Of a DNA stretch of 64,000 nucleotides, positions 4,431 to 56,100 are shown piece after piece. Within the stretch, counting starts at the first letter, position 1. Each line of letters starts with the position of its first letter. Under the pieces are notes generated by a model that saw only the letters and a program-made list of their open reading frames with translations, ran no database searches and was not told where the DNA came from. A program made the translations under genes and the position numbers. This DNA comes from Candidatus Kapaibacterium sp. (GTDB taxonomy: Bacteria > Bacteroidota > Ignavibacteria > Kapaibacteriales > WFXC01), in NCBI GenBank assembly GCA_027082775.1, contig JALWUI010000058.1, positions 7,255 to 71,254 on the forward strand, read 5' to 3'.

Positions 4431-5273
4431 ATGAAAGAATCGTGGAAGTATGCTTCGCGACAGTACCAGCCCGAAGATACGGTCGTGAGCATTGGATCGG
4501 TTTTTATTGGAAGCGGTGAGCCGGTTGTGATTGCTGGTCCCTGTGCGGTAGAAAGTGCGGAACAGATTGTGGAAACAGCGCTGGCAGTCAAAGAAGCCGG
4601 GGCGCATTTACTTCGGGGCGGCGCGTTCAAACCGCGCACCAGCCCGTATGATTTCCAGGGGCTGGGCGCAAAAGGATTGGAGCTTCTGGCACAGGCACGG
4701 GAAATGACGGGATTGGGCATTGTGACTGAAGTACTGGATCCTGCCGATGTACCGCTTGTTGCTGAGTATGCAGATATGCTCCAAATTGGCAGTCGGAATA
4801 TGTACAACTACCCCCTGCTGCGAGCCGTCGGACGACAGGATAAACCTGTGCTGTTGAAACGCGGGATGTCTGCTACCCTCTATGAGTTTCTGATGAGTGC
4901 CGAGTACATCTTAGCAGAAGGAAATCCGAACGTTGTTCTGTGCGAGCGCGGCATTCGCGGTTTTTCGGACTTCACCCGAAATACTCTGGATCTCAGCATT
5001 GTGCCGGCGGTCAAACAATATTCCCATTTGCCCATCATTGTCGACCCCAGCCACGGAACTGGTCGACCGGAGTACATTGAGCCAATGAGCCTGGCAGCCT
5101 TAGCCGCAGGTGCCGACGGCATTATGGTAGAAGTACACCCGCGCCCCCATCGAGCACTCTCTGATGCAGATCAGGCACTGACTCTTACCCAATTTCAGGA
5201 AATGATGAAAAAAATTCGCTCATTCTTGGAGTGGCGCCGCAGCTATGGACATTCTTACCTTGAACATCCGTGA
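4431..5273 (+). CDS. 3-deoxy-7-phosphoheptulonate (DAHP) synthase, class I-beta. The KDO8P-synthase family is related, but context favours DAHPS.
   Basis: 280 aa with a PEP-utilising aldolase fold. Motifs include [15 protein letters not shown] and IVDPSHG. It sits first in a shikimate-pathway operon. Confidence 0.7.
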
Positions 5274-6396: not shown

Positions 6397-7786
6397 CCAG
6401 CCAGTAGATCTGGTGGAGCTCCGCGCAGATCGCTGGCGAACGCCCGACTGGCAGGCAGCCCGGCGGCAGATCCCTCAGCCAATCATTGCTACAATTCGAC
6501 GCAGAGCAGAAGGTGGTGAATGGGAGGGATCAATGCACCAATGGGTGCAGCTCTATAAAGCAGCTATTGAAGCAGGCTGCCAGTGGATCGATGTGGACAT
6601 TCAGGGCATTGCCGCCTTTGATCAGGATTTTCTCAACACGGTCTTCGCCCGCCGCGGCGTGCTTTCAGCCCATTTCACGGACGAACAGTCTGTCGATGCC
6701 ACCGTACGTGCAATGGCAGCAATTCCGGCTGCGGTGTACAAATGCGTTCTCCCGGAAGAATTCGCCCGCTGTATGCGTACGGTCACTGCCCTCATTGATT
6801 TCTGGAAATCGCTGAACAAAAAATTTATCGTTCACTGCTCCGGCGAAAATGCGACCAGCACCCGCCTCTGGGCTGCGATCCTCGGAAATGCGTGGACATA
6901 CATCGCTGCTGGAACTGAACGAACGGCAGCCGGGCAACCAACTATGGAGGAACTCCGATGGTATCGGCTGGATCAAAAAACGCCAGAGACCCGGCTGCTG
7001 GGACTTTTCGGCTATCCCCTGCACCAAAGCCGGGGATGGCAACTCCATAACGCCCTGCTGGCACTTTTCGGCTATGCAGATCGCTGGCTCTATCTCAATT
7101 TCCCCGATCCTGACTTTTCTGCTGCATTCGCTGCCTGGCAGCCGTGGCTGGATGGTGCCAGCATCACGATTCCACACAAACAAACAGCGGTGGCACTGTG
7201 CGAAGAACGGTCACCAGAAGTCCAGATAACCGGGGTTTGCAATACCATTCTCCGACGGGAAGACCACTGGGCAGCCTTCAATACCGATTTTCTGGCACTG
7301 CGCGAGCTGCTGCTCCCCTTCCAATCACAACTCCGCCGGGCACTGGTCGTTGGCACGGGCGCTACTGCCCGAACTGCCATCGGCGTACTTCAGCAAATGG
7401 GCGTTTCTCAGATCTGGGTGATGGGACGATCGGCGGCAAAGCGCAAGGCGCTGGCGACACACTTCCACTGCTCCTCCCTTCCGCTGGGTGCGCCACTCCC
7501 AGCACCGGTTGACATCCTCATTCACGCCACTCCTGTTGGGATGGTTCCCTATACGGAGCAGATGCTGCCATTGACCCCCTACCTTCATCCTCAAATGGTG
7601 CTGGTAGAAGTGGTGCACAACCCTGCCGAAACACTGCTGGTCCAGACTGCACGACAGCAGGGCGTTGCTGCGATTATCACCGGGATCGAGCTCTTTCTGC
7701 ATCAGGCGCGCTATCAATTTCAGCTCTTCACAAACGTTTGCCCCTCTATCCAGCAAATGTGGCAGGTATGGAAACAGCTCCAATGA
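6317..7786 (+). CDS. Bifunctional 3-dehydroquinate dehydratase (type I) / shikimate 5-dehydrogenase (AroD-AroE fusion)
   Basis: The N-terminal half aligns with type I DHQase (VDLVELRAD ... RRRAEGGEW ... IDVDIQG). The C-terminal half aligns with AroE (LFGYPLHQSRGWQLHN, ITIPHK, NTDFLAL, VVGTGATARTA). The start is uncertain. The first in-frame ATG at 6317 overlaps aroB by 80 nt. The ORF-track start at 6185 is implausible. Confidence 0.75.
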   Translation: MRGNPFKTCLSFWISSIHNLPTLAEISQPVDLVELRADRWRTPDWQAARRQIPQPIIATIRRRAEGGEWEGSMHQWVQLYKAAIEAGCQWIDVDIQGIAAFDQDFLNTVFARRGVLSAHFTDEQSVDATVRAMAAIPAAVYKCVLPEEFARCMRTVTALIDFWKSLNKKFIVHCSGENATSTRLWAAILGNAWTYIAAGTERTAAGQPTMEELRWYRLDQKTPETRLLGLFGYPLHQSRGWQLHNALLALFGYADRWLYLNFPDPDFSAAFAAWQPWLDGASITIPHKQTAVALCEERSPEVQITGVCNTILRREDHWAAFNTDFLALRELLLPFQSQLRRALVVGTGATARTAIGVLQQMGVSQIWVMGRSAAKRKALATHFHCSSLPLGAPLPAPVDILIHATPVGMVPYTEQMLPLTPYLHPQMVLVEVVHNPAETLLVQTARQQGVAAIITGIELFLHQARYQFQLFTNVCPSIQQMWQVWKQLQ

Positions 7787-13419: not shown

Positions 13420-13604
13420 ATTGTTCCATTGACCGCTATTGCTCTTTGTTGCTGCTGTGGTGACGCACCATCACCCTTAGTGTTTTGGCAGGAAACTGCC
13501 CATAGCAAGCTATGCTGCGGAAGCACAGTCCAGAAGCATCGGTTTACAACAGGAAATGCCCCTGCGATATCCATCCCGGTAATGGATACGGATACCAGAA
13601 TTCC

Positions 13605-13889
13605 TTACGAAGTCGCCGGACTTTCAGAACTGTCTTCAACCCCGCACACATTTGTCAGCGTCGTTACCAGAATGGTCATCCCGTATTCCGCAGCCGCATT
13701 GAATGCAGCCTGTAAAGCTTCAAAAACCACCGCTGCTTCCCCTTCAATTTCCGTATGCATTGGCTGGACATCGACGGTAAGGGGAAACGATCGGAGAACT
13801 TCAATTGCTCGATTGATCGCTCGAAAATCCTGCTGTCCCAGCGGATACACTGCCACCGTTGCAGCAATTCGCATCAGTGCTTCTCCCAC
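13605..13889 (-). CDS. MTH1187/YkoF-like small protein (UPF0045 family)
   Basis: 94 aa with a ferredoxin-like pattern (VAVYPLG, TEIEGEA, YGMTILVTT). The likely true start is the second Met at 13874, sharing one base with the upstream stop (TGATG). Confidence 0.5.
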   Translation of the reverse strand: MGEALMRIAATVAVYPLGQQDFRAINRAIEVLRSFPLTVDVQPMHTEIEGEAAVVFEALQAAFNAAAEYGMTILVTTLTNVCGVEDSSESPATS

Positions 13890-14548
13890 ATTATGAGACT
13901 GAATCCCGGAACATTGCCAGCACGCTGTCCAGCGCGATCTGCTTCATCGTACGGCGGATGAGCATACGGTGCAAGCCACAAAGCCGAGCGTTTCTCCTGC
14001 GCTGGCTGTCCAACCATCGTCTCCAGTTGCTGCTGATCGTAGAAACGGGCGACCTGCCACGGCAGTTCGCCCCGGTCAGCCCGATGGCGATAAACCGCAA
14101 CCCAACTGCTTTCGACTTCTAAAAATCCGATGATCAGGTGACCGCCGGGCTGTAAAACTCGCAGCGCTTCACCGATCGCCCGCCGGGGATTGTTCACAAA
14201 TTCCAGGGTTGCAAAAAACAGCACGCAGGCAAAAGCCTCATCTGGAAAAGGCAGGTTTTCCGCAACTGCCGTGATCCAGCGCACTGCCGGGAGCTTCTGC
14301 CGACCAATGGCTTGCATTGCCTCTGAGGGTTCCACCGCCGTCACATCCCATCCAGCGTCAAGCAAAATCCGGGTCGCAAATCCAGTACCCGCTCCAATAT
14401 CCAGTGCCGTTTCCGGGTGCAACCGGTTCAACAACTGCCGCAATCGCCGCGTTTCCTGCTCCGCCACATACTGTCCCAGCGGTGTTGTGAACCATTGATC
14501 ATACGCAGAGGCTATAGACTGGAACGCTGCCACACCGTTCATTTCCAT
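13874..14548 (-). CDS. Class I SAM-dependent methyltransferase
   Basis: Motif I LDIGAGTGFAT, post-I acidic residue and motif II (PGGHLII), in the Methyltransf_11-like arrangement. Confidence 0.75.
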   Translation of the reverse strand: MEMNGVAAFQSIASAYDQWFTTPLGQYVAEQETRRLRQLLNRLHPETALDIGAGTGFATRILLDAGWDVTAVEPSEAMQAIGRQKLPAVRWITAVAENLPFPDEAFACVLFFATLEFVNNPRRAIGEALRVLQPGGHLIIGFLEVESSWVAVYRHRADRGELPWQVARFYDQQQLETMVGQPAQEKRSALWLAPYAHPPYDEADRAGQRAGNVPGFSLIMWEKH

Positions 14549-14563
14549 TTCTCTTTTTTGTCC

Positions 14564-15151
14564 TTACGCTGCAACTTTTGGCTTTCGATGAGCAGTAACG
14601 ATCCAGTACGAAGTAATTTTGGACAGAAACTGCCGCGCCGGGTATTCCAGACGTCCGCGATGGCGCAACACCCTTCGGGAGGGCCACGGATCCCGGACGA
14701 CAACAGTAAGCGCACGGGGAGGATGTCCCGGAAGCTGCTCAATTTGCAGCGCCGTTGCCACAACAGCGTGACCGGCTAACCGGGGAAAGGTGCGGCTGAT
14801 GTAGGATAGCAGGACAGGACGCTGCGCGGACAATTCCCGGATCAAGGTTTCCAGCGGTGGTGGTCCCCAGTGAAACGAAGCTCGAACGACAAAAAATTGC
14901 CCTTTGAAATCGATCCCCCAATCATTCAGATTTTTTGCCATCGCTTCGTATGTTGCCTCCCGATTCGGCGGCTGCCCCCGCCAATCCAGACCATAAGCAC
15001 GGTACACAATGGCTTCCTGTGAGATCTCGATCCCATAGTACCGCAGAATCATTTCAATAGCGGCTGCCCAGCACCATTGCGTATTCCGCTGCGCGGCATA
15101 GACCGTATTCATCCGACCGGTTGGAATGCCGATGTAGAAACGCCGGGACAT
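14564..15151 (-). CDS. Papain-fold (C39-like) cysteine peptidase domain protein
   Basis: 195 aa. The catalytic-Cys context (QRNTQWCWAAAIEMILRYYG) and downstream His (GHAVVA) resemble the C39 / Peptidase_C39_2 family. There are no TM segments. Confidence 0.45.
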   Translation of the reverse strand: MSRRFYIGIPTGRMNTVYAAQRNTQWCWAAAIEMILRYYGIEISQEAIVYRAYGLDWRGQPPNREATYEAMAKNLNDWGIDFKGQFFVVRASFHWGPPPLETLIRELSAQRPVLLSYISRTFPRLAGHAVVATALQIEQLPGHPPRALTVVVRDPWPSRRVLRHRGRLEYPARQFLSKITSYWIVTAHRKPKVAA

Positions 15152-15257
15152 TGCTCCGTCTGCTTATTGCTTCTGCACTGCTGCACATTTTCTAGTAGAC
15201 GTTCAACGCTTTTGAACCCTGCACCACTCTGCACCTTTGATCCCGGCAACGGACAGC

Positions 15258-16226
15258 TTACGGTTGAAACCGCCAGGTGTTGATTCCCGGCTGTACCTGA
15301 AATGCCGACGCCTGTACCTTCTTGTAGTCTGAACCCGTACACGGGAGAACGTCTGAGTGAGGAATGGTAAAGGCGTTGACACGATGAACGCAGAAACGAT
15401 AAGGCAGGTTGGAGTCATACCAGAAATACTGATGCTGACTGTCCTCAGCGTACAGATAGACAGTGCCCTTGTACCATCCCAGGGAAAGCTGGATAGACTG
15501 ATGTGGATCCAGTTTGTACCACCCTCTCGACACCCACCCTTCTGACGAAGAAAACGAAATCACGCAGGCATAGAGCAGCCAATCGGTGTCATTGGCTAAT
15601 TGCAGGATCGTTTCAGCAGGAGCCGAAGGAAATCGGGGAAAGAAGGACGAGGGCGGCGTTCCATACTGAATGTACCCGCCGCTTCGCTGCGTCGAGTGCT
15701 GGGGTAGTTGTGTTGGATCCAGATCCACCAAAGTACCGTCAATCCAGCATTTCCATCCCCAATCTCGAAAAAGGATGCACCTATCCCCAACCCAAGACCT
15801 CCGAATCCACCCTCTCCGTAGGGTCCACGCCGAACCATCGCTCAGTACCAAGATTTCCGTTCCATTATCATCAATTACGTCCGCTACTCTCAACTTTTTT
15901 GCCCCGATCAGTTGCTCCACCTCAACCCCCTGATCCTCATTACACCCTTCAACCCACATTTTCCCATTTCGGAGAATAACGCGGGGGTTAAATTCGTAGC
16001 AGTAGTCATAGGTATACTCACGCTGGATCCAGAAGGTGCCATCGGAGAGCTCAACAACGGTGTTGCCTTGCCACCCTTCAAAGTCACCAACGATTTGCAA
16101 CGAAGATGGAGCGAACGGATCCTGCTGCTGCGATGCGTTCCAATTCCAGTTCCAGTTTCCCCACTGCTGGGCACCCAGCGGCAGGCTCAGCCACAGTGCA
16201 AAGAAGAAAGCGTACCATTGCTTCAT
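15258..16226 (-). CDS. Secreted hypothetical protein with an internal tandem ~45-aa module
   Basis: N-terminal signal peptide (MKQWYAFFFALWLSLPLGAQQ) followed by WGNWNWNWN. It has two related modules (ELSDGTFWIQ...WVEG and VLSDGSAWTL...WIDG). No recognisable catalytic motifs. Confidence 0.6.
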   Translation of the reverse strand: MKQWYAFFFALWLSLPLGAQQWGNWNWNWNASQQQDPFAPSSLQIVGDFEGWQGNTVVELSDGTFWIQREYTYDYCYEFNPRVILRNGKMWVEGCNEDQGVEVEQLIGAKKLRVADVIDDNGTEILVLSDGSAWTLRRGWIRRSWVGDRCILFRDWGWKCWIDGTLVDLDPTQLPQHSTQRSGGYIQYGTPPSSFFPRFPSAPAETILQLANDTDWLLYACVISFSSSEGWVSRGWYKLDPHQSIQLSLGWYKGTVYLYAEDSQHQYFWYDSNLPYRFCVHRVNAFTIPHSDVLPCTGSDYKKVQASAFQVQPGINTWRFQP

Positions 16227-16439
16227 CGGTCAACTCCTCTGGATGTACAAACTGATTACGGCAACAGACTCTTTTGCCCTTTTTCCAGTGGCAAATGCAG
16301 CATTTTGAGAAGGTTCCTGTTGCTCCAGACAATAATCGAACACCGGGTTTTACAGTTCCAAAGTTGCCAATCGAGAACCCTGTTTCAGCGCATATTTCTG
16401 GCAGTGCCCACTTGGACATACAAATTTTTGCCCCTACTA

Positions 16440-16920
16440 TCGCTCCGTAGGAACAGGAATGTTTGCCGACGAAAGTCGGCGCTCCCACCGACTGGGAGCG
16501 CACCCTTTAGGGTGCATTCTCTGCCGACGAAAGTCGGCGCTCCCGGCAATTGCCAGCGAAAGCTAGCACTCCCAGTGGGTGCCGGCGAACGTCGTGCTTC
16601 TAGTCCACTGGGAGCGCATACTTTAGTGTGCATTTCTTGCCGGCTGAAGCCGGCGCTCCCAGTTCGGCGCAATCCGGCAGGTCGTCATCACCCGCACCCG
16701 TAGGGGCGACCGGCCGGTCGCCCCTACACATTCGCAACGTTGCCGACGAAAGTCGGCACTCCCAGTCGGCGTCTCCAGTTCACTGGAAGCGCACACTTCA
16801 GCATGCATTTACTGGGAACGCATCCTTTAGGATGCATTTACTGGAAACGCACACTTCATCGTGCATCGTTGACCCTTTGCCGACTGATCCCGGCGCTCCC
16901 AGTCGGCGCTTGCAGAGCGT
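16440..16920. repeat. Cluster of REP/BIME-like short palindromic repeat units (cluster 1)
   Basis: At least 10 units combine a 6-bp-stem hairpin with a GAAA/TGAA/TTTA loop (e.g. GCCGACGAAAGTCGGC, GCACCCTTTAGGGTGC) and the core ACTGGGAGCGC or its reverse complement GCGCTCCCAGT. The units alternate in orientation. The same family recurs at 39.06-39.55 kb. Confidence 0.8.
16700..16727. repeat. Perfect 28-nt GC-rich palindrome inside repeat cluster 1
   Basis: GTAGGGGCGACCGG|CCGGTCGCCCCTAC. A related imperfect copy (GGGCGACCAGCCAGTCGCCCCTAC) lies at about 39418..39443 in cluster 2. Confidence 0.85.
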
Positions 16921-17023
16921 TCGTAGATAGCAAATCATCCCGACACTTTGCGATCCCCATCCAACTCCAATACAACCCGGAGCTAACCGTAAGAGAGGCA
17001 ACTAAAGAAATGGAGCAGCGACG

Positions 17024-18175
17024 ATGAACAGACAGCGCAACATTCTGCTTTTTACTCCCGGTCCTACGGCTGTTCCACCGTTTGTCTACGAGGCAATGCA
17101 GCAGCCGTTGTACCACCGCAGTGACGCATTTCGCCAGCTCTGGCAACAATTGCACCAGCGGCTGCAATGGCTCTTTCAAACCGAGCAGCCGGTTCTTGCC
17201 CTTACCTGCTCGGCAACCGGAGCAGCCGAAGCGGTTATCCAGCAGTTGTTTGCCAGCACTGCTCCCCACTGCGTCGTTGTCAACGGGAAATTTGCAGAGC
17301 GCTGGGCGTTGATGCTGGAGCGTTTCGGTGCCCAGGTGCATCGATTGTCCGTCCCCTGGGGAGAAGCACCACTGCTGGAGGAAATCGAGTCAGTGGTACA
17401 ATCAATGCCCAATCTTGTCTCCTTCTGGGTCGTACACAGCGAAACTTCAACCGGCGCCTTGAGCGATGTCAAAGCCATTGCCCGTATCGTCCGCACATAC
17501 AGCGAGGCTCTGATCTGTGTCGATGCGGTCAGTTCCCTGGGCGTTCATCCGCTGTCGATGGATCAATGGGGACTGGACGTGGTGTTTACCGGCTCACAAA
17601 AATCCCTGATGCTCCCTCCAGGACTGGCTTTCGTTGCCCTGAGCCAGCGAGCGTGGGACAGCGTGCAGCGCCGCTCTGCGGTTAGCTGGTATTTCGACCT
17701 GCTGCAAGCACGTCGGTCGGCTGAGAAAGGACTAACCCCCTGGACACCGGCAATTCCTCTTCTCCAGGGAGCTGATGCCGTGTTGCAGTATTTCCAGAAC
17801 GCAGGACTGGAAGCGATATGGCATCTTCATCAGCGCCGCGCCCACGCCTTCCGTGCTGCGCTGGAAGCGTTGCAACTGCGAGTTTTCGGACAGAGTTCTT
17901 CTCACGCGGTCACGCCTGTTTATCTCCCTCCCGGTGGAGAATCATTCCGCCAGCAACTCTACGAACAGTTCGGTATCGTAGTTGCCGGTGGGCAGGAGCA
18001 ACTTAAAGGCAAAATTTTCCGGGTTTCCCATATGGGATGGTTACCGTACGAACGTCACCTGTACCTGATCAGTGCGATGGAACAATTGCTTCAGCAGCAA
18101 CATTATCATTTTGAATTCGGTGCGGGCATTGCAACCTTTCAAAAGGTGTGGATGAGTGAAGGAGCAAATGGATGA
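17024..18175 (+). CDS. Class V pyridoxal-phosphate aminotransferase (alanine-glyoxylate / serine-pyruvate aminotransferase family)
   Basis: 383 aa with an N-terminal LLFTPGPT motif and a GSQKSL-type Lys region typical of the AGXT/SGAT family. Confidence 0.8.
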   Translation: MNRQRNILLFTPGPTAVPPFVYEAMQQPLYHRSDAFRQLWQQLHQRLQWLFQTEQPVLALTCSATGAAEAVIQQLFASTAPHCVVVNGKFAERWALMLERFGAQVHRLSVPWGEAPLLEEIESVVQSMPNLVSFWVVHSETSTGALSDVKAIARIVRTYSEALICVDAVSSLGVHPLSMDQWGLDVVFTGSQKSLMLPPGLAFVALSQRAWDSVQRRSAVSWYFDLLQARRSAEKGLTPWTPAIPLLQGADAVLQYFQNAGLEAIWHLHQRRAHAFRAALEALQLRVFGQSSSHAVTPVYLPPGGESFRQQLYEQFGIVVAGGQEQLKGKIFRVSHMGWLPYERHLYLISAMEQLLQQQHYHFEFGAGIATFQKVWMSEGANG

Positions 18176-18807
18176 GCGCTCCGTATCAACTGCTCATTGC
18201 TTCCAATAATCCGCACAAGATTGAGGAAGTTCAGCACATCCTTGATGAGCTACTTCACGGTGCCGTTCAGATCCTTTCACCTGCTTCCCTGGGGCTTCAC
18301 GTCGAGGTAAAAGAAACAGGCGCGACACTGGAAGAGAACGCCTACCTGAAAGCCATCGCCTTCCACCGCGCCAGTGGACTCCCTGTTATTGCGGACGATA
18401 CCGGACTGGAAGTCGAAGCGCTCAACGGTGCGCCGGGCATTCACACCGCACGGTATGCAGGTGAAGATCAAGATGATCGGAAAAATCGGCAAAAGTTACT
18501 CAAAGAGCTCTCAATGGTTGCACCAGAAAAGCGTAACGCTCGATTTCGCACCGTCATCTGCTTCGTCGATTCCCTCCGCATTTTCTTTGCAGAAGGAATG
18601 TGTCCGGGCAGGATTGTCGAGCAGGAACGCGGAACAGGCGGTTTCGGTTACGATCCGATTTTCATTCCGGAAGGGCATCACCGCACGTTCGCAGAACTAC
18701 CTGCAGCGATCAAAAATCGCATCAGCCATCGCCGGCGCGCGCTGGAAGCATTCGCTCAAAAGTTTGCTGCTTACTACGATATTCCACTGGCAACCCAACA
18801 CCGATAA
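18172..18807 (+). CDS. rdgB: Non-canonical purine NTP (dITP/XTP) pyrophosphatase, RdgB/Ham1 family
   Basis: 211 aa with ASNNPHKIEE, DDTGLEV and GGFGYDPIF motifs. An ATGA overlap links it to the aminotransferase gene. Confidence 0.85.
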   Translation: MSAPYQLLIASNNPHKIEEVQHILDELLHGAVQILSPASLGLHVEVKETGATLEENAYLKAIAFHRASGLPVIADDTGLEVEALNGAPGIHTARYAGEDQDDRKNRQKLLKELSMVAPEKRNARFRTVICFVDSLRIFFAEGMCPGRIVEQERGTGGFGYDPIFIPEGHHRTFAELPAAIKNRISHRRRALEAFAQKFAAYYDIPLATQHR

Positions 18808-18940
18808 CAACATTCCTTCCTTCTGCATTCTGCTTACTGAGGAGCGACATTTCACGAAACCAGCCCGGAAAACGTCTTGCTGCCTTTTCCAGGGGAAGAA
18901 CTGGCTGCAACTGGCAAGAAGGAACAGAAAGGGGACGGAA

Positions 18941-20656
18941 ATGCGATTTTCGGAAATTCCTTATAAGCGTCCGGATCAGCAGGAATTGCTACAACAGATT
19001 CAGCGTCTGGAGCAACAGGCTCGATCCGCAGACAGTGCTGATGCATTGCTGAGCATTCTCAAGGAAATGGATCAACTGCAACGGCACATTCGTACTCTTC
19101 AGGCGCTTGTTCATATTCGTTTCACGCAGGATGTCCGCAGTGAATTCTGGAAAAACGAAAAAATTTTCTGGGAACAACTCCTTCCCGAATTAGCCGAAAA
19201 ACAGCGGCAACTGCTTGCTGCATTGGTCGAACATCCACAGCGATCAGCAGTAGAGCAACAGGTGGGAGAACGGTTATTTCAGGGCTACGAAATCAGTCTA
19301 CAAACGTTCGATCCTTCAATTAAGCCCCTCTTGCTGCAGATCGTGGCGCTGGAGCGGCGTTACACGGAACTAACGGGATCGCTGCTCATCACGTTTCGGG
19401 GCAATCAGTACACGATGTCTCAAATCCAGCCATTTCTGCAGGATCCGGACCGGGAAACCCGGAAAGCGGCTGCTGAAGCGTTGTGGAATGCACTGGGCAA
19501 TCTGTCAGCAGAGCTGGACACTATTTATGACCAACTGGTCAAACTGCGGCATCAGAAAGCCCGGAAGCTGGGATTTGATAGTTACATCCAGCTCCGCTAC
19601 CTGGAACTATTCCGCACCGACTACACGCCGGAAGATGTCGCCCAACTTCGGAAGGTCATCCGGGAAACGGTGGTTCCAATCGTGCAGCAATTGCGTCAAG
19701 AACAGCAACAATGGTTGAATCTGGATCATCTGCGGATTTACGACGAAGCACTGCTTTTCCCTTCCGGCAATCCACAGCCAAAAGGCGATCCTGAATGGAT
19801 ACTGCAGCAGGCAAAAACGATGTACACCCGGCTTTCCGATGAGACAGCCCGGTTGATGACGCATCTGGTTGAAGATGAATTTCTGGACGTCCTCAGTCGT
19901 CCCGGTAAAGCCAGCGGCGGATACTGCGCCTATCTTCCTGACTACCAATCTCCCTTCATCTTTGCTAACTTTAATGGGACCATCGATGACGTCCGTGTGC
20001 TCACGCACGAATTTGGCCACGCTTTCCAGCAGGACCAGAGCAGTACCCAGCCTTTCTTAGCATATATGTCCCCAACCTTAGAAACCGCCGAAATCCACTC
20101 GATGGGGATGGAATTCCTCACCTATCCGTGGATGGATCTGTTCTTTGGAGACGAGGTCGAAAAATTTTACACCCAGCATCTCTTTGCAGCAGTCAGCTTT
20201 CTGTGCTATGCTGCCGCCGTGGATGAGTTCCAGCACCGCATTTATGAGCAACCAGAAATGTCGCCGCAACAGCGGTTAGCTGTATGGCAGGAAATGGAAA
20301 AGCAATACTTGCCGTGGCGAGATAATGCCGGCATTGCGGCGCTGGAGCAGGGGCGATTCTGGCAGCGACAACTTCACATCTATCGCGCACCGTTTTACTA
20401 CATCGATTACGCCCTGGCACAGCTCTGTGCCTTCCAGATCTGGCTGCAATCCCGTCGATCGTATGCAGAAACCTTCCAGCAGTATCGAACGCTGTGTCAG
20501 TTGGGCGGACGATACTCCTTTGTGCAAACCCTGCAAACCGTGGGGCTCTCCTCTCCCTTCGATCCCCGGGTTGTTCGGCAAACCATTACTGAGGTGGTGG
20601 CTCTACTTCGAACGCTGATAGAGCAGGTTATCCTTTCGGCGTCGACTGTCGCTTAG
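18941..20656 (+). CDS. pepF: Oligoendopeptidase F (M3B metallopeptidase)
   Basis: HEFGHAFQQ zinc motif with M3-like length. The ORF-track frame 18374..20656 overlaps rdgB, so the start is set at ATG 18941 (MRFSEIPYKRPD). Confidence 0.8.
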   Translation: MRFSEIPYKRPDQQELLQQIQRLEQQARSADSADALLSILKEMDQLQRHIRTLQALVHIRFTQDVRSEFWKNEKIFWEQLLPELAEKQRQLLAALVEHPQRSAVEQQVGERLFQGYEISLQTFDPSIKPLLLQIVALERRYTELTGSLLITFRGNQYTMSQIQPFLQDPDRETRKAAAEALWNALGNLSAELDTIYDQLVKLRHQKARKLGFDSYIQLRYLELFRTDYTPEDVAQLRKVIRETVVPIVQQLRQEQQQWLNLDHLRIYDEALLFPSGNPQPKGDPEWILQQAKTMYTRLSDETARLMTHLVEDEFLDVLSRPGKASGGYCAYLPDYQSPFIFANFNGTIDDVRVLTHEFGHAFQQDQSSTQPFLAYMSPTLETAEIHSMGMEFLTYPWMDLFFGDEVEKFYTQHLFAAVSFLCYAAAVDEFQHRIYEQPEMSPQQRLAVWQEMEKQYLPWRDNAGIAALEQGRFWQRQLHIYRAPFYYIDYALAQLCAFQIWLQSRRSYAETFQQYRTLCQLGGRYSFVQTLQTVGLSSPFDPRVVRQTITEVVALLRTLIEQVILSASTVA

Positions 20657-20855
20657 CGCCGATAGCCGCAGGGACAGTTCTGCCTGTCCCTGCCCTCTAC
20701 CCACGCTGTGAGGCATTTTTCTTCTGGACATCTTGCGTATTTGCAGAGAAATTTGTATCTTTGCGATTGGAGATAGAAGTCGGGAAGGAAAGATCTGAAA
20801 AATTGATCTTTGAAATCCGACCCGTCTCGCTATTCTCTTCCTCTTTATGCTGCAT

Positions 20856-34724: not shown

Positions 34725-36629
34725 TCAGCGTTCGACAGCTAACATCCGCTCATACTGCTGCATATATTCCTTGATAGCGTTCACAATGCCCCGCGCTATT
34801 TTCTGCTGTCCCTGCTTCGACGCCAGGAATTTTTCATCACGAGGATTGGACAAAAAGCCAGCTTCAAACAGAACATTGGGCATTGAGGCGCCAACCAACA
34901 CCAGAAATCCCGCTTGATGAACGCCTCGATCTGACAGACCGGTGGCCTGCGAAACATGCTTCTGGAGCAGCGAAGCAAACAATTCGCTGAATTTCACAAA
35001 AGCCCGCTGCGCCATTGTGGCAATAATCAACTGCTCCTCTGTCAGCTTTACATACCGCTGCTGATCTGCTTCCAGCCGAATAACGGCATTTTCCCGCCGG
35101 GCTACTTCCAGCGCATCAGCGTTCCGCCCCGGTCGAAGAATGTAGGTTTCGCACCCACGGGCAGGATCAGGTTTACGCGGTTTGGAATTACAATGAATGC
35201 TGACAAACAACTTCCCACCGCTTTGATTGGCAATTTGCCCTCGCCGATAGAGCTCAACAAACCGGTCCGTTGTTCGGGTATATACGACTTTAATCTGCGG
35301 GAACTCCTTTTTAAGCAGTCGTCCAACTTCCAGCGCAATTGCCAGCGTAATATCTTTTTCCCGAACTCCTGTTACCCCAATCGCCCCCGCATCCTTGCCA
35401 CCATGTCCCGGATCTAACACAATCACATCCAGTTTCCACTTCTGCTGTTCCTTCTGCAGCTTCTCGGCAACGCTTTCCACCTGCTGCTTGAAATAAATCC
35501 GAAACTTCAGCGCCGTGCTGTTTGCAATGCGGCGATAGTCCACGTCTGCAATCTCCGTAGGGAACTGGAACGTATACCGGAGAATGTTCCGGATCTTTTC
35601 TACTTTGATGCGACACCGATGCTGCTTCCCCAGCGCCGACAGAGAGCCTGCCCGATGGAGTGCATCCGGGATGCGAATAATGAGGGTATTGCCGAAAAAT
35701 TCTGGCTTCTGATAAGCGCCAATGGAACGATTCGCATACAGGTAGAGCTCGTAGGTATCACCGGAAGGCACCAGCCGCACTTTCTGGATCAGCAACGGTG
35801 GTCTGCTGCGCTCTGGTGGTGCTAACCACTCCAGCGGCATAAGCGAGGCTAAAAGTGGCGATGGCCGCAGTGGCACACCAAGCTGGAAGGACTGTGTCTT
35901 GCGAGGTGGTAGCTGCGGTAATGGTCGCCGCAATCCGGGCGGAATCTGGTAAAACAGCGGAGGGAGAAATAGCGGTTTGGCTTTGTACCGGGGAAGCTTC
36001 CGTTGCCCAGCAACTTCCAGTTGCCACTTCCGACTTTCCCCCAGATACCGTGGCAAACCGGTTTCCGCAATCCAGCTTAAGCGCTGACGCACCGCCTCCA
36101 CCCCTTCTTCCAGCGGCGGCATTGCACCGGTCACCACGACAGGCTGGGTGGTGCGTTTCGGTTTAGCAACAAAAGGCAACAGCTCTGCCAGTGTTTCCTG
36201 AAATTGAAGGCGCAGCTTCTTTCCCCGGTGTTCGTAGCGAAGAACGCCCAGCGATCGAAGGGCTTCCAGATAGCCGAACAGCGGTAGAAACGGTTTATCC
36301 TCCCATTGAATCACCGGATAAGGCATCTGGTATTCGTAGCGATTTTCACCTTTCTCCAGATACAAAATCAGGCTCAACGGCGCAAAGCGGAGACGGAACT
36401 GGAGCCGATCGCTCCAGATCCAGTGATGGCGCCACTGTCCCCCCGGAAGAATCCGGGCAGCATCTGCGGGTGAAATATACCGGTGCGGGCCCAGTTGAAG
36501 AACCGTTATTCGCACCGGTTTGTATCCCGATCGCACCACCGTAGAGCGGTGAAACTGCTGTGCTGTCAGAAACACCGGTGCAAGGAGCAGCAAGCTGGCA
36601 AATAGCAGCACACTCCGTTTCTTGTTCAT
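34725..36629 (-). CDS. N-acetylmuramoyl-L-alanine amidase (Amidase_3, AmiC-like) with N-terminal exported domain
   Basis: Signal peptide and a C-terminal Amidase_3 catalytic domain (VLDPGHGGKD...SIHCNS...E). Confidence 0.8.
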   Translation of the reverse strand: MNKKRSVLLFASLLLLAPVFLTAQQFHRSTVVRSGYKPVRITVLQLGPHRYISPADAARILPGGQWRHHWIWSDRLQFRLRFAPLSLILYLEKGENRYEYQMPYPVIQWEDKPFLPLFGYLEALRSLGVLRYEHRGKKLRLQFQETLAELLPFVAKPKRTTQPVVVTGAMPPLEEGVEAVRQRLSWIAETGLPRYLGESRKWQLEVAGQRKLPRYKAKPLFLPPLFYQIPPGLRRPLPQLPPRKTQSFQLGVPLRPSPLLASLMPLEWLAPPERSRPPLLIQKVRLVPSGDTYELYLYANRSIGAYQKPEFFGNTLIIRIPDALHRAGSLSALGKQHRCRIKVEKIRNILRYTFQFPTEIADVDYRRIANSTALKFRIYFKQQVESVAEKLQKEQQKWKLDVIVLDPGHGGKDAGAIGVTGVREKDITLAIALEVGRLLKKEFPQIKVVYTRTTDRFVELYRRGQIANQSGGKLFVSIHCNSKPRKPDPARGCETYILRPGRNADALEVARRENAVIRLEADQQRYVKLTEEQLIIATMAQRAFVKFSELFASLLQKHVSQATGLSDRGVHQAGFLVLVGASMPNVLFEAGFLSNPRDEKFLASKQGQQKIARGIVNAIKEYMQQYERMLAVER

Positions 36630-37591
36630 TGCTCTACTCTGACCATCGTTTGTAATTCCGGATACTGCTCACTTCGCAGCACGCCTGCTAATCGGTAATA
36701 TTGCATCGCCGTCGGACGCCACTTAATGCGCATCCGTTGCATAAATTCTTCAACGGGAATGCCGGATTCTGCCAGTAAGATTCCTGCGGTGTGCCGAATG
36801 GAAAAGGGCGTTATCAGACGCTTGCGATCCTGCTTGATGCCGCTTTGCCGCAACCGCTCGGAAATTGCCTCGCGAATCCCACGAATCGTCATTCGCTGCC
36901 GCTGCGATCGATTGCTGTAGCTCACAAACATTGGTGAATCCTCGTCCAGCTCTTCGTACTGCCGCCGTTTCTCCAGATACCGTTGCACTGCTTCCACTGC
37001 CGCTGGTGGCACAGGCACAACCTCATCTTTCACCGTTCGCCCCTTCCCCTGCACATAGAGGATCCACTTCCGACCCCGGCGTTGCAAATCCCCAATGTTG
37101 GCATACATTATTTCTCGCTCTGAACAGGCGCATCCCAACATCAACTGAATAATCGCTCGATCCCGCAGTCCGATCTCGGTCGTCTGATCAATGGACTCCA
37201 GCAACTGCTGAATCTCCGATAATTGCAGATACATTCGATGATGGTGTTGCGGACGCCGACCGCCAGCCACTCGAGCCGCCGGATTTTTCTCTAACACTCC
37301 TTCAGCGACCAGAAACTGGCAGAATCGTCGCAGAGCAGTCAGATACGTAGCAACCGTTGCTTCTTTGAGCTTCCGCTGCGTTTTGAGAAATTCTCGATAC
37401 CGTTCAACATCGCGCACCCGGAAGAAAAAGTGGCGGTCCTGGACAAAAAAGTTGACAAAAGCTTTCAGGGAACGCTCATACGTTCCTCGCGTTTCCGGTG
37501 ACCGCTCCTGCAACGTCTCCAGAAACGCCGCTATGTACCGCTTGAGCTCTGTGAGCTTGAGCTTGACCGGTTTAAAAGTATCCTTGATCAT
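36626..37591 (-). CDS. Tyrosine site-specific recombinase, XerC/XerD family
   Basis: N-terminal SAM-like core-binding domain and a C-terminal catalytic domain with R..H.R.Y residues (RHTAGILL ... YY). The start is trimmed to the Met at 37591 (MIKDTFKP). Confidence 0.8.
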   Translation of the reverse strand: MIKDTFKPVKLKLTELKRYIAAFLETLQERSPETRGTYERSLKAFVNFFVQDRHFFFRVRDVERYREFLKTQRKLKEATVATYLTALRRFCQFLVAEGVLEKNPAARVAGGRRPQHHHRMYLQLSEIQQLLESIDQTTEIGLRDRAIIQLMLGCACSEREIMYANIGDLQRRGRKWILYVQGKGRTVKDEVVPVPPAAVEAVQRYLEKRRQYEELDEDSPMFVSYSNRSQRQRMTIRGIREAISERLRQSGIKQDRKRLITPFSIRHTAGILLAESGIPVEEFMQRMRIKWRPTAMQYYRLAGVLRSEQYPELQTMVRVEQ

Positions 37592-37965
37592 TCCTCTGCT
37601 GCCTTGCCCCAAAGATTTTTTAAAATTACAACTTTCTGACGAAATGGGAAGCGAAAACGGTAGGAACGGATGCGGATGCGCAATGTCCCGCAAGGGTACA
37701 ATGTTCCATACCGGTACGGACAATTGCTGCTTTGAACGATTCGTAGAAAGTTGATCGGCGCAAAGAAACTGCCGGGAAACAGGTGTCAGGCTACCTGCCG
37801 ATTTTCCCTGCATTCTGTGTTAGGCAGCGGTGAAAGCATATTGCTGATGCAGAAACAGTACGCTGTCCGGAAGCCATCAATCGCTGTTGCTCGCCATACA
37901 CGATTCCGCATTTCCAGCCGTTCTTTGCTTAAGGAACAAGGAAAAAGTCAAAAAAATTTTTAGAA

Positions 37966-39059: not shown

Positions 39060-39545
39060 TTATCGTTCCCCAGTTTGTGGGGCTCCTGCATAAACACCTG
39101 AGATCACTTTGCCACGAAAGCAGCAACAACAAACACCAGGCTTTCCGGGAGCGCCGGCTTTCGCTGGCAAACACTGGAAACATCCCACTGGGAGCGCCGG
39201 CTTCAGCCGGCATCTTTGCACACTAAGGTGTGCGTTCCCAGTAAACGCACGCTGAAGCAAGCGCCCCCAGTAATCGGGAACGCCAGCGCTAACAAGCACC
39301 GACTGGGAGCGCCGACTTTAGTCGGCAAAGAAAGTGCACCCTAAAGGGTGCGGTCCCAGTGAATGCACGCTGAAGCGTGCGCTCCCCAGTGTAGGGGGCG
39401 CAGCGGCGCTTGCCTATGCGGGCGACCAGCCAGTCGCCCCTACCAGTGCAAAAATTCCCTCTCCCTCCGGGAAAGGGTAAGGGCAATGCACGCTGAAGCG
39501 TGCGCTCCCGGTTGCCAGAAGCGCCAGCTTTCCCGGCAAAGGATG
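39060..39545. repeat. Cluster of REP/BIME-like short palindromic repeat units (cluster 2), same family as 16440..16920
   Basis: Repeated hairpin units (GCCGGCTTCAGCCGGC, GCACGCTGAAGCGTGC, GCACCCTAAAGGGTGC, CCGACTTTAGTCGG) alternate with the core ACTGGGAGCGC / GCGCTCCC(C)AGT. It contains the GTCGCCCCTAC palindrome remnant. Confidence 0.8.
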
Positions 39546-52940: not shown

Positions 52941-53040
52941 TCCGCATCCTGCTTCTGCTTTGATCGCAAACTTGATGCATCAACCGGACTTTGCACTTGC
53001 TTTGCAATAACAATCCAAAAAGCTACTGCGTACCCAACCC

Positions 53041-53090
53041 AAACAAACAAAAACTGCCGTGCCAGTGGATAAACCACCGGAACACGGCAG
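53041..53090 (-). terminator. Rho-independent terminator downstream of the giant T9SS gene (minus strand)
   Basis: On the minus strand, CTGCCGTG...CACGGCAG stem with inner pairing, followed by TTTTTGTTTGTTT. Confidence 0.5.
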
Positions 53091-53129
53091 CATTGCTTGC
53101 TCGACGCTGAGAAAATGGCCGTTTGCTCT

Positions 53130-56100
53130 TTACTTCACCACATTCACTTTGAGCGTTTTCGTAAACCGTCCACTGCTCATCCGTACATAATACAACCCAC
53201 TGCTCATCTCCGTCGCCGGTACCTCAACCTGATACCACCCCGCCTTCCGATACCCCTTCACAAGATCCCTTACCTTCGTCCCAACCGCATCATACACCCC
53301 AATCTGCACTTCCCCATCAAATCCTATCCCGTACCGTATCACCAACCGCTCCCGCACCGGCTGCTCCCCTACAACCTCCATCCCATAACGCTCCCCGATC
53401 ACTATGTCCCGCGCCTGCCGCAGGCAAAACTCCGATAACGGTACCCGCCCTTTTACCCCACTCGGCTCTACACAAATTGCCCGATCCTCTCCAATCCCGA
53501 TCTCTACAGGAACAATCCCTGCTTCATTGCTATCACTTTCCAGATACACCTCAAACACCAATTGACACACTTCCTCCCCGCCCGGCAACGGCTGCTGCCC
53601 CTGCCCGCTGATCTGCGCTATCCCCGGCTTTAACTCTACTCCCGTCCATTCCCATCCATCTATCAGCGATTCCACTCCCTTCAACCCCAACGCCTTCCCG
53701 TTGTACCGTATCTCCAGCACCACCTGCTCCAACCCCGCTTCCCCGCTCATATCCTCATACCGCACCGGGACCATCACCGTATCCCCCGGCAACACTGGAT
53801 CCTCTACGTCCTCTATCACAAACACCACCGGCACCGAATACCGCTCCCCTCTTACCACCACCGTCGTGTCTCCACTCCCACTTTCCACCAGCACCTCTAC
53901 CTCATACTGCCCCGCTTCGCCCGGCAACAACCGTACGCCTACCTGCCGCTCCCCGCCTGCCGGTACCACAAACTGCCGCGGTCCTACGACCTCAAACTCT
54001 CCAACATCCCCGCCAGCGATCCGCACATCCGTCACATCCACTGCCGCACTCCCCGTGTTCCGCACCACAATCGTCCCTTCTCCGCCATCACATCCCAATA
54101 CCGGTCCAATCACCGTCCCTTCTGCTTCCAGCCCCACCACATACGCACAGCCTCGCACCATTACCCCACTTTCTACCTGCGGCTCTTCCTCCGGTCCCGC
54201 TGCCGCATCACTCACAATCCGTACCCGCACACTGTCTCGGGGATACGTCCGCGCCCGAAACCGTACTGCAAGCTTCAGCGTATCTCCCACATCCAGTGTC
54301 ACTGGAAATTGGGGCCAATTCTCTGCCCAGAACGCCTGCGGATCACTCATTACTCCATTGTCAAATTCTACGTTCCAGATCTGCAATTGCCACACCGCAT
54401 CGGCATTCCAGATCTTCACTACCCCCTGCTCCGCCGATTCCGTCCCCAGCTCCACACATTCAAACTCATACCCTTCCGCTCCAATCTTCGGTAAATACGC
54501 CTGTCCACGTAACTCTCCTTCTACGGCTTCAGCATCAATAAACTCCGCCTGAATCCCTACCTTCAGCGTATCTCCCACTGCCGTCTCCACCTGCGGCTCA
54601 TACTCCACAAACACCAACAGCTTCTGCTTCGGATTCAGTGTTACCCCCTGCGGATCACTCAACGGTGTCCCTTCAAACTCATAGCCAGTAATCCGGAAAT
54701 GCGGCGTTGGCGCTGTGAGATACACCGTATCAATCGTTACCGCATTATTCCCCCCGTTGCCAACTTCCACCTGCCCGCTGTGCACCGTCTGCAACCGCTG
54801 CCACCCCCAGTCGTAACTGGTGATGTACGGTGCCCCCTGAATCCCTTCTCCCTTCCATCGCGAAATGTTGTCATCTCCCGGCGGTGCATCGCACACAAAC
54901 TCCACGTCAATCTGATACTTTTGCACTGCCGTCGGCGTGAAACACGCCCCCTTGAAGTAAATGGTCTCTCCCGGTTGCACTTTGATCGGCAATGTGTAGG
55001 TACTTTGATCCAGCGAAAACGGGGCAGTCACATTCCGAATCTCGGTGATCGTCAGCACCGTGCTGCCCGGATTGCGAATCTCCACGGTCCGCTGAAAATC
55101 CTGGATGTTCTCACTATTACACCGGGTCAGCCCAACCGGCACTGGTCCCGCATCCCAGTCGCCCACCACGATATGCGGCAACACGCCCTGTCCCCGCAAC
55201 TCTGCCAGGGGAAAGTCCACGCACGGTGTTGTTGCAAACAACGAATCAATGTCCCAATCCTCCGGATCGCTCCGCTCATCCTTCGGCGTGTACCGCAATT
55301 CCACCCACAGGGTATCGCCCGCTGCCAGACTTGTCGGTATATCGGGCGTGATCGACACAATTTCAAACTCGTCGGCTATCTTGAGCTTCACCTCCTCCAC
55401 GAGCACCACAGAATCACTTTCGTTGACCACTGCCAGCAGCAACGTCCGGCTCTTGCCGACCCGCACGGTATCGAAAAACACCAGGGTGTCTGACGGCATT
55501 AACTTCGGTGCTTCGTAAAACACGCTGTCATATGCTTCATTGCCCGCCCGGTCGACCACAACGAAATAGGCTTGTGCGTCCTTTGTCTTATCGATCACCT
55601 CCAGGCGGAACCTGGCAGGCGAAATCTTCTCACCGGTGTTTTCCAGCTTTGGCGGATCGACCAGTATCAGTCGATAGTTGAAACTTTTTTCCGGAATCAG
55701 CTCGATCTTGCTGACGCCCTGATCAATCTGACGGGGATTATCGTTGGGTTTGCCGTTGCGTTCCTCCCAGGCGGTAAAGTCATAATCGCCGCAATCTTCC
55801 ACAAATTCCAGCACTGGCTCTAAGGTATCCAGCTCATCGATCTTATTGACGGCGGTGGCAGCGGGCCACCCATAGGATTCCCAGGTGGCGAAGCCATAGA
55901 TATATCCTCCAAAAGGCGTTTTCCCTTCGATGCGGTGCGGTCCGGGATTCACATTCAGCACGGCATAATACACATTGGTTCCCGGAATCCGCTGGCTAAG
56001 AAACGAGGGCACCTTTTGCCACACGTACTGTCCGTCGAGCTTAATCGTTTTGAGTTTTTGCTGCTCTGGATCATCCGGATCGCCAATTGCCAGAATGTTG

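Follow-up and report, generated by a model that had tools for sequence, protein, structure and literature searches.

Here we describe an intergenic array of hairpin-forming repeats, termed cluster 1, in a 64,000-nt stretch of DNA (hereafter the window) from Candidatus Kapaibacterium sp. (contig JALWUI010000058.1). Cluster 1 comprises about 450 bases between two genes and is a non-coding patchwork of short repeats. With a probability of roughly 0.7, we consider it a mosaic array resembling bacterial interspersed mosaic elements (BIMEs), built from a family of modules resembling repetitive extragenic palindromes (REPs) that a trans-acting enzyme working on single-stranded DNA (ssDNA) would have spread. 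Observed directly is a dispersed, structurally constrained, fast-turnover mosaic of hairpin modules, in which arrays are gained or lost whole and grow and shrink in a 26-nt register. An earlier, sequence-only reading of the window had proposed a REP/BIME-like array of short hairpin units at this site. The units are present, and the analogy proved closer than had been proposed, extending to two unit types of fixed orientation, short linkers, tandem amplification and a unit number that varies between strains.

A 26-nt module with two hairpin classes

Each module is 26 nt long and consists of a T, a 16-nt hairpin (6-bp stem, 4-nt loop) and the 9-nt tag GCTCCCAGT. The stem is GC-rich, the loop is TAAA, TGAA or GAAA, and 97% of copies have the T before the stem. 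The unit had previously been taken as a hairpin joined to an 11-mer; all three hairpins quoted in support are present and abut that core, but the terminal GC of the 11-mer belongs to the base of the stem, which leaves a tag of 9 nt. With up to one mismatch allowed, 15 matches to the core 11-mer ACTGGGAGCGC or its complement were counted in the window. Dinucleotide shuffles gave an expectation of 1.17, and none of 100 shuffles reached 15; 14 of the 15 matches lie within 16491-16903 or 39187-39512. The unit scan required a 6-bp stem, a 4-nt loop and a 6-bp stem followed by GCTCCCAGT, with up to two mismatches in the core and two in the stem. It returned 11 units in cluster 1 (16464-16903), together with seven in a second cluster (cluster 2) and an eighth there with an extra C in its tag. 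The proposed recurrence of the family 22 kb away is therefore real, with repeats of the same family filling 39144-39538.

The stems fall into class A (GCCGRC: GCCGAC, GCCGGC) and class B (GCAYNC: GCACAC, GCACGC, GCACCC, GCATCC), with only five to six stem types in total, every one self-complementary. Linked variants mark subfamilies; for example, a GTT tag accompanies the GCACCC and GCATCC stems. The commonest arrangement is an inverted pair with the hairpins inside and the tags outside, 2-15 nt apart (mostly 6-10), and 42 of 47 close inverted pairs combine one class A and one class B module. Such a pair constitutes a 56-60-nt element of the form ACTGGGAGC - hairpin A - linker - hairpin B - GCTCCCAGT. 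Like units are also arranged as direct tandems, spaced 4 nt apart, giving a period of 29-30 nt. When a covariance model of the paired element was run over all 64 kb with filters off, matches were obtained solely within the two clusters.

Predicted folding and compensatory stem variation

As single-stranded DNA or RNA, the paired element is predicted to form a three-way junction (Y), in which the tags pair with each other and the two hairpins branch off. Folding energies are -16 to -19 kcal/mol for DNA and -30 to -37 kcal/mol for RNA (z scores of -4.5 to -7), and the three-way junction is the minimum-energy structure in five of six RNA folds and in all DNA folds. The element at 16491-16547, for example, is predicted to adopt the Y-shaped fold (z = -4.6 as DNA, -6.4 as RNA) and scores 72.8 bits with model R1 on the minus strand versus 51.4 on the plus strand, while that at 16607-16663, the best in the window, reaches 78 bits (E = 1.8e-16). 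In cluster 2, 39302-39360 likewise gives a Y fold (-33 kcal/mol as RNA, z = -6.2). The modules at 16840 (class B) and 16878 (class A) form a further paired element with a 14-nt linker (46.4 bits with model R1 for 16840-16903). At the edge of cluster 1, the tag of the class A module at 16464-16489 pairs head-to-head with that of the next module, and 16465-16515 folds into three hairpins (-20 kcal/mol, z = -5.9).

An alignment of 48 distinct elements revealed three stem pairs with compensatory double changes (45 cells versus 15.3 in shuffles). In this alignment 96% of cells were paired, compared to about 30% with the partner slid; this percentage is inflated because units had been picked with mismatch limits, which leave the compensatory variation unaffected. 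The varying pairs are position 5 of the class A stem (A-T or G-C, 30/16) and, in the class B stem, position 5 (A-T, C-G or G-C) and position 4 (C-G or T-A). Folding had been suggested as a check on the sequence-only reading, and the units do fold as hairpins, with compensatory changes in their stems.

A fixed polarity within each array

The units had been described as alternating in orientation. Both orientations do occur, but the alternation is not strict (cluster 1 reads + - + + - + / + - - - +, counting strict units only); the actual rule is that class A units all point one way and class B units the other, so that the whole array has a polarity. This single polarity per array is obeyed by 235 of 236 units in 63 multi-unit arrays. 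If the polar strand is taken to be the one that reads tag-hairpin for A and hairpin-tag for B, the polarity of cluster 1 is minus and that of cluster 2 is plus, and the covariance model scores agree.

Of 31 arrays located between co-directional genes, 24 have the sense strand as their polar strand (24:7, p = 0.003). In 59 of 78 arrays the polar strand is also the one that is locally richer in G, and this still holds for 32 of 41 after removal of coding-strand skew. The polar strand carries the A-runs and the opposite, anti-polar strand the T-runs (94 vs 33), and hairpin-plus-T-run motifs resembling terminators therefore face antisense transcription; counts of terminator-like motifs are not above shuffled expectation. 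Selection against the terminator-like orientation on the sense strand is one possible cause of the polarity, and exposure of the non-template strand as ssDNA during transcription is another. A replication-strand rule, in which polarity would follow the lagging strand across the replichore, is not supported, as neighbouring arrays on the same contig agree just 19:13. A G.U wobble test of RNA-level constraint gave no RNA signature, the stems holding 25 G.T versus 37 A.C mismatches on the polar strand, and an apparent wobble excess in the tag helix was discarded as an RNA signature because it stems from sub-family variants.

Turnover between strains and relatives

Comparison of related genomes, also suggested earlier as a check, showed presence or absence of the arrays at both intergenic sites. 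At the site of cluster 1, two JOHN19 scaffolds and GCA_027036995.1 (loci L102-L104) align with window positions 13567-16321 at 94% identity and with 16926-20774 at 97%, and 55 unrelated nt replace 16322-16925; neither the core 9-mer nor a covariance model match was found in these loci.

Cluster 2 occupies the spacer between prfA and an SNF-family symporter gene, which measures 627 nt in the window and 360 nt in L094-L097, where the flanks are 95-98% identical. The 244 nt missing from these loci (39243-39486) span one B unit to another, with the B module of the paired element at 39187-39242 as the left end-point, and the alignment blocks overlap by exactly 26 nt. This overlap equals one unit and suggests that direct units recombined or slipped against each other. 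L098 carries the 360-nt-spacer allele as far as its contig extends, L099-L100 have a 578-nt spacer with a different module order, and L101 stops within the array. The more distant GCA_054037375.1 (87% identity in release factor 1, RF1) is without both arrays. The WFXC and JALWJX metagenome-assembled genomes (MAGs) share about 92% identity, yet their orthologous arrays differ in unit number and by as much as 470 nt of modules.

Dispersal across genomes

One genome per species was scanned for TGCMNNNKRAANNNKGCGCTCCCAGT, and at least 82 blocks of 8 kb matched, including at least 48 from the Kapaibacterium MAG WFXC01 and at least 20 from the MAG JALWJX01. The proposal of a dispersed family is thus borne out, with the module present in at least 68 separate 8-kb blocks of these two other MAGs. 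Strict units, defined by no more than one tag mismatch and one stem mismatch, number at least 196 in 359 kb of WFXC01 and at least 49 in 146 kb of JALWJX01 (at least 245 in total), and they form at least 88 clusters of 1-10 units, all effectively intergenic. Nine clusters nominally inside open reading frames (ORFs) fall in ORFs of 124-245 aa that the repeats themselves create, and none lies within a credible gene. The ORFs 16385-16672, 16628-16930, 16740-17027 and 16798-17001 within cluster 1, which had been dismissed as artefacts, do look spurious (the first three were scanned and gave no Pfam match); ORF 15912-16703, which overlaps cluster 1, also has no Pfam match. Convergent gene pairs flank 26 of 62 clusters, versus 21% of all neighbouring gene pairs, and divergent regions are not avoided.

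So far, the family has turned up in large numbers only within one small clade of hot-spring Kapabacteria. Most pattern matches outside this group are chance matches that have no hairpin, and a few have perfect or near-perfect hairpins. Four units with a GCCGGA stem lie on a Lentisphaerales contig (L045/L070), among them a 106-nt inverted pair; the 2.2-kb segment between inverted modules on this contig was considered and rejected, as it has no sizeable ORF and no Pfam match. An exact 26-mer, T-GCAGAC-TGAA-GTCTGC-GCTCCCAGT, is common to an Acidobacteriota chromosome (OY970352; L072 6815-6839), where it lies 2 nt past the rho stop codon, and a phage contig (L090 8179-8204 = L092 8754-8779), where it lies just upstream of a ribosome-binding site, and the flanks of the two copies are unrelated. 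A near copy of the same GCAGAC-stem 26-mer was found on a Verrucomicrobium contig, and L055 4651-4675 is a low-copy hairpin-plus-tag module among the matches from unrelated phyla. A metagenome scan for the GCAG-stem variant recovered just two contigs, one of them the phage already known, and cross-phylum copies are therefore rare. Another of the matched blocks is a 1506-nt contig with nine units that is binned as 'Aquificales' (L013, JALWWX010000119.1). Its 86% identity with WFXC DNA of Kapaibacterium (L080) makes it probable that this repeat-rich DNA was mis-binned.

Other repeat families within the arrays

The perfect 28-nt palindrome reported at 16700-16727, GTAGGGGCGACCGGCCGGTCGCCCCTAC, is present and belongs to a second repeat family. 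It is a 'double-foot' REP bounded by GTAG...CTAC, and such GTAG-tagged REPs occur either as this 28-nt monomer or as a dimer of about 55 nt in which two different hairpins (GGGCGAAGC... / GGGCGACC...) are enclosed by GTAG...CTAC; further copies are found, for example, at L006 1811-1880 and L019 2611-2650. GTAG monomers or dimers lie within 200 nt of 46 of the 88 arrays, and 61 of 65 GTAG REP copies lie within 400 nt of an A/B unit, a co-location that is partly built in because the loci were chosen for their A/B units. Only these GTAGGGGCGACC... palindromes, and not the A/B modules, carry the GT[AG]G tag of a described REP superfamily. Double-foot REPs have been associated with TnpA-REP subclass 2.4, which is represented in Cyanobacteria, Bacteroidetes and other phyla (Quentin et al. 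2018, PMC6006769), and the palindrome at 16700-16727, with its 5' GTAG and 3' CTAC feet, is exactly of that type.

A third recurrent module, CCCTCTCCC-n-GGGAGAGGG followed by (T/A)AGGGTGAGGG, comprises a 9-bp hairpin and a T-run (CCCTCACCCTAACCCTCTCC-n-GGGAGAGGGAATTTTT) and is also found at L020 ~4690-4735 and L012 ~7140-7180. Its T-run is always on the anti-polar strand of the array, and in sequence the module looks like a terminator for antisense transcription.

We also considered the arrays as copies of one long element. This was rejected, as the 200-500-nt matches take in the 5' region conserved within a family of paralogous genes. The paralogues themselves, in WFXC01 (L032 ~2190-2330; L046, L053, L077, L082), share a promoter box of the Bacteroidetes type (TAtaTTTG), and their first ~15 codons contain a (GT)8-11 microsatellite whose repeat number differs among them, making them a candidate slipped-strand phase-variable family.

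Comparison with known repeat systems

In E. coli, BIMEs combine y and z REPs in inverse orientation with linkers, occur in tandem copies whose number per locus varies between strains, and are acted upon in single-stranded form by TnpA-REP (PMC3333891). The present family resembles the E. coli REP/BIME system (y, z1, z2; BIME-1, BIME-2; REPtron; PMC3333891, PMC2817692) in consisting of GC-rich extragenic hairpins in hundreds of copies, with two unit types that keep a fixed inverse orientation across short linkers, amplification in tandem, a unit number per locus that differs by strain, and compensatory stem variation. The 26-nt module is a GC-rich stem-loop palindrome within the 20-40 nt expected of REPs, is extragenic, dispersed and of high copy number (~0.5 Mb from two MAGs holds at least 245 strict units), and has subfamilies distinguished by complementary stem changes; the inverse-orientation types with linkers and the strain-variable tandem copy number that characterize BIMEs are both found. 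It differs from the E. coli system in its tag (the 9-nt GCTCCCAGT/ACTGGGAGC rather than the 4-nt GTAG), in its perfect 6-bp stems that require no internal mismatch, in its Kapabacterium host, and in that no tnpA-REP was found here in ~0.7-0.75 Mb.

In the GTAG and CGTC REP superfamilies (Di Nocera et al. 2013, PMC3733652), one end of a 6-13-bp stem likewise bears a conserved tag that stays unpaired. These superfamilies also share head-head dimers in which the tags lie outside and the spacers are short, clustered groups, subfamilies with complementary stems, and a preference for convergent and co-directional intergenic regions. The tag described here fits neither consensus and is twice as long, and the tags of a dimer are predicted to pair mutually, closing the three-way junction. 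Judged by its tags, the array is thus not a member of either superfamily as defined. In lacking GT[AG]G, the A/B modules resemble the 'atypical secondary structures' of Bacteroidetes linked to subclass 2.6 RAYTs (REP-associated tyrosine transposases) and the partners of class 3 (PMC6006769), a comparison made by description, as that paper has no sequences that can be matched to A/B modules. Subclasses 2.4 and 2.6 (PMC6006769) share with the present case a Bacteroidota-Chlorobiota host and differ in that no cognate tnpA was seen here.

As with the REP doublets termed REPINs in Pseudomonas fluorescens SBW25 (PMC3116915), the replicating unit appears to be an inverted doublet and not a single hairpin, and the linked variants in stem, tag and linker suggest that doublets are copied whole. 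The doublets described here are not REPINs, in that their arms are different hairpins (~20/26 identical by eye), a Y junction rather than one long hairpin is predicted, and they are mostly embedded in larger arrays instead of singly dispersed.

In IS200/IS605 elements, a subterminal hairpin lies beside a short conserved guide or cleavage sequence and is read on one ssDNA strand. The hairpin-plus-tag design is common to these elements, their miniature derivatives and the modules described here, and a fixed array polarity would suit a strand-specific enzyme. The differences are that no tnpA or tnpB is associated with the modules and that polarity is inconsistent along contigs, unlike lagging-strand targeting. 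CRISPR was rejected as a description of the arrays, because the units occur in both orientations and are separated by gaps of -1 to 15 nt or by other modules rather than by unique ~30-nt spacers.

Proposed mechanism and alternative explanations

We propose that the modules would spread as non-autonomous elements in a folded single-stranded form, mobilized by an enzyme that acts in trans and recognizes the hairpin and its tag. Spread as ssDNA is suggested by the hairpin-plus-tag design, which is shared with REP/RAYT and IS200/IS605 substrates, by the GTAG REPs and by the BIME-like behaviour of the arrays. An HUH/Y1 enzyme of the RAYT type would be the best candidate, because canonical GTAG REPs occur in the same arrays. 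Direct units may then undergo homologous recombination or slippage and so reshape the arrays, and any effects on expression, through stable RNA structure on the sense strand or hairpin-plus-T-run motifs on the antisense strand, would be a side-effect.

Several observations weigh against this proposal. No RAYT or Y1 gene was detected in the window or the fetched loci (~0.7-0.75 Mb) by searching six frames for an HUH...Y motif or by running phmmer with E. coli RayT on ORF-like segments, these searches covering the window and the loci fetched up to each search. The seven genes bracketed by arrays are ordinary by Pfam, with no transposase between arrays. The A/B modules are without the GT[AG]G or CGTC tag of the described REP superfamilies (PMC3733652), and about half of the arrays have no GTAG REP nearby. 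The strain differences are all compatible with existing units having recombined or a whole segment having been replaced, and no clean insertion of a single element with defined ends was captured; every 'singleton' module lies in the midst of decayed copies, so that there is no clean insertion junction from which to define the ends or the target site. A further point is the fixed polarity, with its bias towards the sense and G-rich strand, for which the causes given above are no more than possible. Separately, at L071 2741-3436 (minus strand), a highly charged 231-aa protein with no Pfam match is encoded with arrays on both sides; it has no HUH motif and is therefore not a RAYT.

It is unlikely that the paired element is instead a classical MITE (a miniature transposable element with inverted repeats), that is, a deletion derivative of a DDE insertion sequence (IS) with terminal inverted repeats ACTGGGAGCGC.../...GCGCTCCCAGT moved by double-stranded cut-and-paste. 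The tags can be read as 9-11-nt perfect terminal inverted repeats, ACTGGGAGC(GC)/(GC)GCTCCCAGT, around a short internal segment, and the Lentisphaerales contig carries a 106-nt element bounded by inverted modules as well as two inverted modules 2.1 kb apart. Yet none of 50 elements is flanked by a target-site duplication (25-nt flanks), a result that also counts against the ssDNA proposal, no transposase lies between or beside modules, and no parent IS with the same ends was found in the available DNA. Modules also occur in direct tandem, independent insertions in random orientation would not yield the strict A/B polarity, and the conserved parts are hairpins with compensatory changes, as is typical of elements read as folded single strands. 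The sequence-only reading had named two findings that would speak against it, a core restricted to two sites and an IS or MITE with target-site duplications; in the DNA read, the core occurs at more than two sites and no such IS/MITE signature was seen.

A mainly host-serving role is doubtful. Under this explanation, the arrays would be cis-regulatory RNA or DNA under selection (as stabilizers of mRNA 3' ends, attenuators, antisense terminators or nucleoid-protein sites), with spread as a secondary matter. The very stable predicted RNA folds, the enrichment between convergent genes, the sense-strand polarity relative to co-directional neighbours, and the A-run and T-run asymmetry that sets hairpin-plus-T-run motifs against antisense transcription would all accord with it. 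Against it, cluster 1 lies between divergent genes, upstream of both, and is missing in same-species strains that keep the same genes and ~95-nt promoter-proximal flanks, while unit number and order vary freely among strains. The stems also have no G.U-versus-A.C strand bias of the kind that an RNA-only constraint would give, terminator-like motifs are no more frequent than in shuffles, and a search against Rfam 15 identified just a tRNA in the window, the best sub-threshold match in the array scoring 20 bits against a cut-off of 35, which is chance level. Far less probable still is that the inverted modules are sites for site-specific recombination, as in an invertible promoter or shufflon, with the tyrosine recombinase encoded at 36626-37813 as the candidate enzyme. 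This Phage_integrase-family gene is 1.3 kb from cluster 2 and is itself an insertion relative to more distant relatives, and cluster 1 occupies a divergent promoter region rich in inverted repeats; but A-B inversion would flip internal modules and break the polarity that nearly all units keep, no inverted segment was seen in any strain comparison, and neither cluster 1 nor most of the 88 arrays have a recombinase nearby.

A more speculative variant of the ssDNA proposal, to which we would attach little weight, is that the hairpin-plus-GCTCCCAGT module represents a third REP-like tag class beside GTAG and CGTC, read by a strand-specific ssDNA enzyme other than a canonical RAYT, or by an RNA-binding protein, and able to cross phyla. 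The starting point for this variant is that the module recurs, with identical boundaries but unrelated flanks, in the Acidobacteriota, phage, Verrucomicrobium and Lentisphaerales sequences.

Genomic setting and feature coordinates

The host is a Kapabacterium by its RF1 homologues, a relative of the Chlorobiota/Ignavibacteria. Cluster 1 is flanked by a gene for a DUF1036 protein (minus strand) and one for a class-V aminotransferase (plus strand); the two are divergent, and the array therefore sits in their shared upstream region and not at gene 3' ends. The genes flanking cluster 2, prfA and the SNF-family symporter gene, are both on the plus strand, and the neighbours of both clusters are ordinary genes. 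Two public contigs with an identical aminotransferase gene terminate within cluster 1, as assemblies typically do at a dispersed repeat. The modules and other features of both clusters are listed in Table 1.

Table 1. Positions of repeat modules and related features of clusters 1 and 2 in the window
Position	Strand	Feature	Basis
16322..16925	.	Strain-variable segment: the whole of cluster 1 and ~140 unique nt	Strain alignments
16464..16489	+	Class A module, T GCCGAC GAAA GTCGGC + tag GCTCCCACC (2 mismatches)	Unit scan
16491..16547	-	Paired element, tags outside: B 16491-16516 (GCACCC), 7-nt linker, A 16522-16547 (GCCGAC)	
16551..16576	+	Class A module, slightly decayed, GCCAGC GAAA GCTAGC ACTCCCAGT	Unit scan
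16580..16604	+	Decayed A-like module TGCCGGCGAACGTCGTGCTTCTAGT; third copy of a 58-nt tandem period	Repeat family D2, 58-nt spacing x3
16607..16663	-	Best paired element of the window: B 16607-16632, 7-nt linker, A 16638-16663 (GCCGGC TGAA GCCGGC GCTCCCAGT)	
16700..16727	.	Perfect 28-nt palindrome GTAGGGGCGACCGGCCGGTCGCCCCTAC, GTAG...CTAC double-foot REP (second repeat family)	
16741..16766	+	Class A module, GCCGAC GAAA GTCGGC ACTCCCAGT	Unit scan
16782..16865	-	Three class B modules in direct tandem, partly decayed (16782-16807, 16811-16836, 16840-16865)	Repeat family D3, 29-nt period
16878..16903	+	Class A module, GCCGAC TGAT CCCGGC GCTCCCAGT	Unit scan
39144..39169	-	Class A module, decayed tag	Unit scan and covariance model
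39187..39242	+	Paired element: A (GCCGGC), ATCTTT, B (GCACAC, tag GTTCCCAGT)	74.9 bits
39247..39271	+	Extra class B module, direct tandem	Unit scan
39302..39360	+	Paired element: A (GCCGAC), AAAGAAAGT, B (GCACCC)	77.8 bits
39364..39390	+	Class B module; tag with one additional C (GCTCCCCAGT)	
39391..39443	.	GTAG-tagged REP dimer (GTAGGGGGCGCAGC..GCGCTTGCC / GGGCGACCAGCCAGTCGCCCCTAC)	
39455..39485	-	Decayed third module (CCCTCTCCC-n-GGGAGAGGG + TAAGGG)	Hairpin + T-run on minus strand
39487..39512	+	Class B module, GCACGC TGAA GCGTGC GCTCCCGGT; bounds the strain indel on the right	Unit scan
39514..39538	-	Decayed class A module (CCAGAAGC GCCAGC TTTC CCGGC A)	

Several features of the flanking genes were also recorded. 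The DUF1036 protein (15258-16226, minus strand) has just two homologue clusters (85% and 54% identity) in a database of 5.8 billion sequences. DNA identity between strains is 94% on its side of cluster 1, which is much more diverged, versus 97% on the aminotransferase side, where the first 135 aligned bases are identical; cluster 1 may be a boundary of recombination. Near cluster 2, the tyrosine recombinase gene (36626-37813, minus strand; Phage_integrase and SAM-like N domains) is located between prfA and a gene for a 634-aa amidase-domain protein, which it overlaps by 4 nt; it is found in all same-species contigs and is absent at that position in two more distant relatives (L003, L004). Elsewhere in the window, the GC skew at 53001-55000 is very strongly negative (-0.38 to -0.52) and coincides with a 1414-aa minus-strand ORF (53130-57374), after which comes a second long ORF of 1403 aa (57468-61679).

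Significance and outlook

REPs and BIMEs have been worked out almost wholly in Proteobacteria, and for the Bacteroidota-Chlorobiota the literature offers only the 'atypical secondary structures' beside some RAYT genes; a literature search on the motifs found nothing relevant. REP/BIME-like elements have not previously been described in this phylum. From a practical perspective, the arrays interrupt short-read assemblies, create spurious ORFs of up to 263 aa and cause mis-binning, and they are also fast-evolving strain markers for populations of hot-spring Kapabacteria. Within an uncultured thermophilic lineage, the family offers an example that is clean, abundant and simple in structure, as well as a natural test of how mosaic arrays are assembled, and its long 9-nt tag and two hairpin classes in fixed arrangement provide handles for finding the enzyme that recognizes them. 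Were the module indeed to represent a third tag class, the strict A/B polarity would mirror the way in which the reading enzyme assembles arrays.

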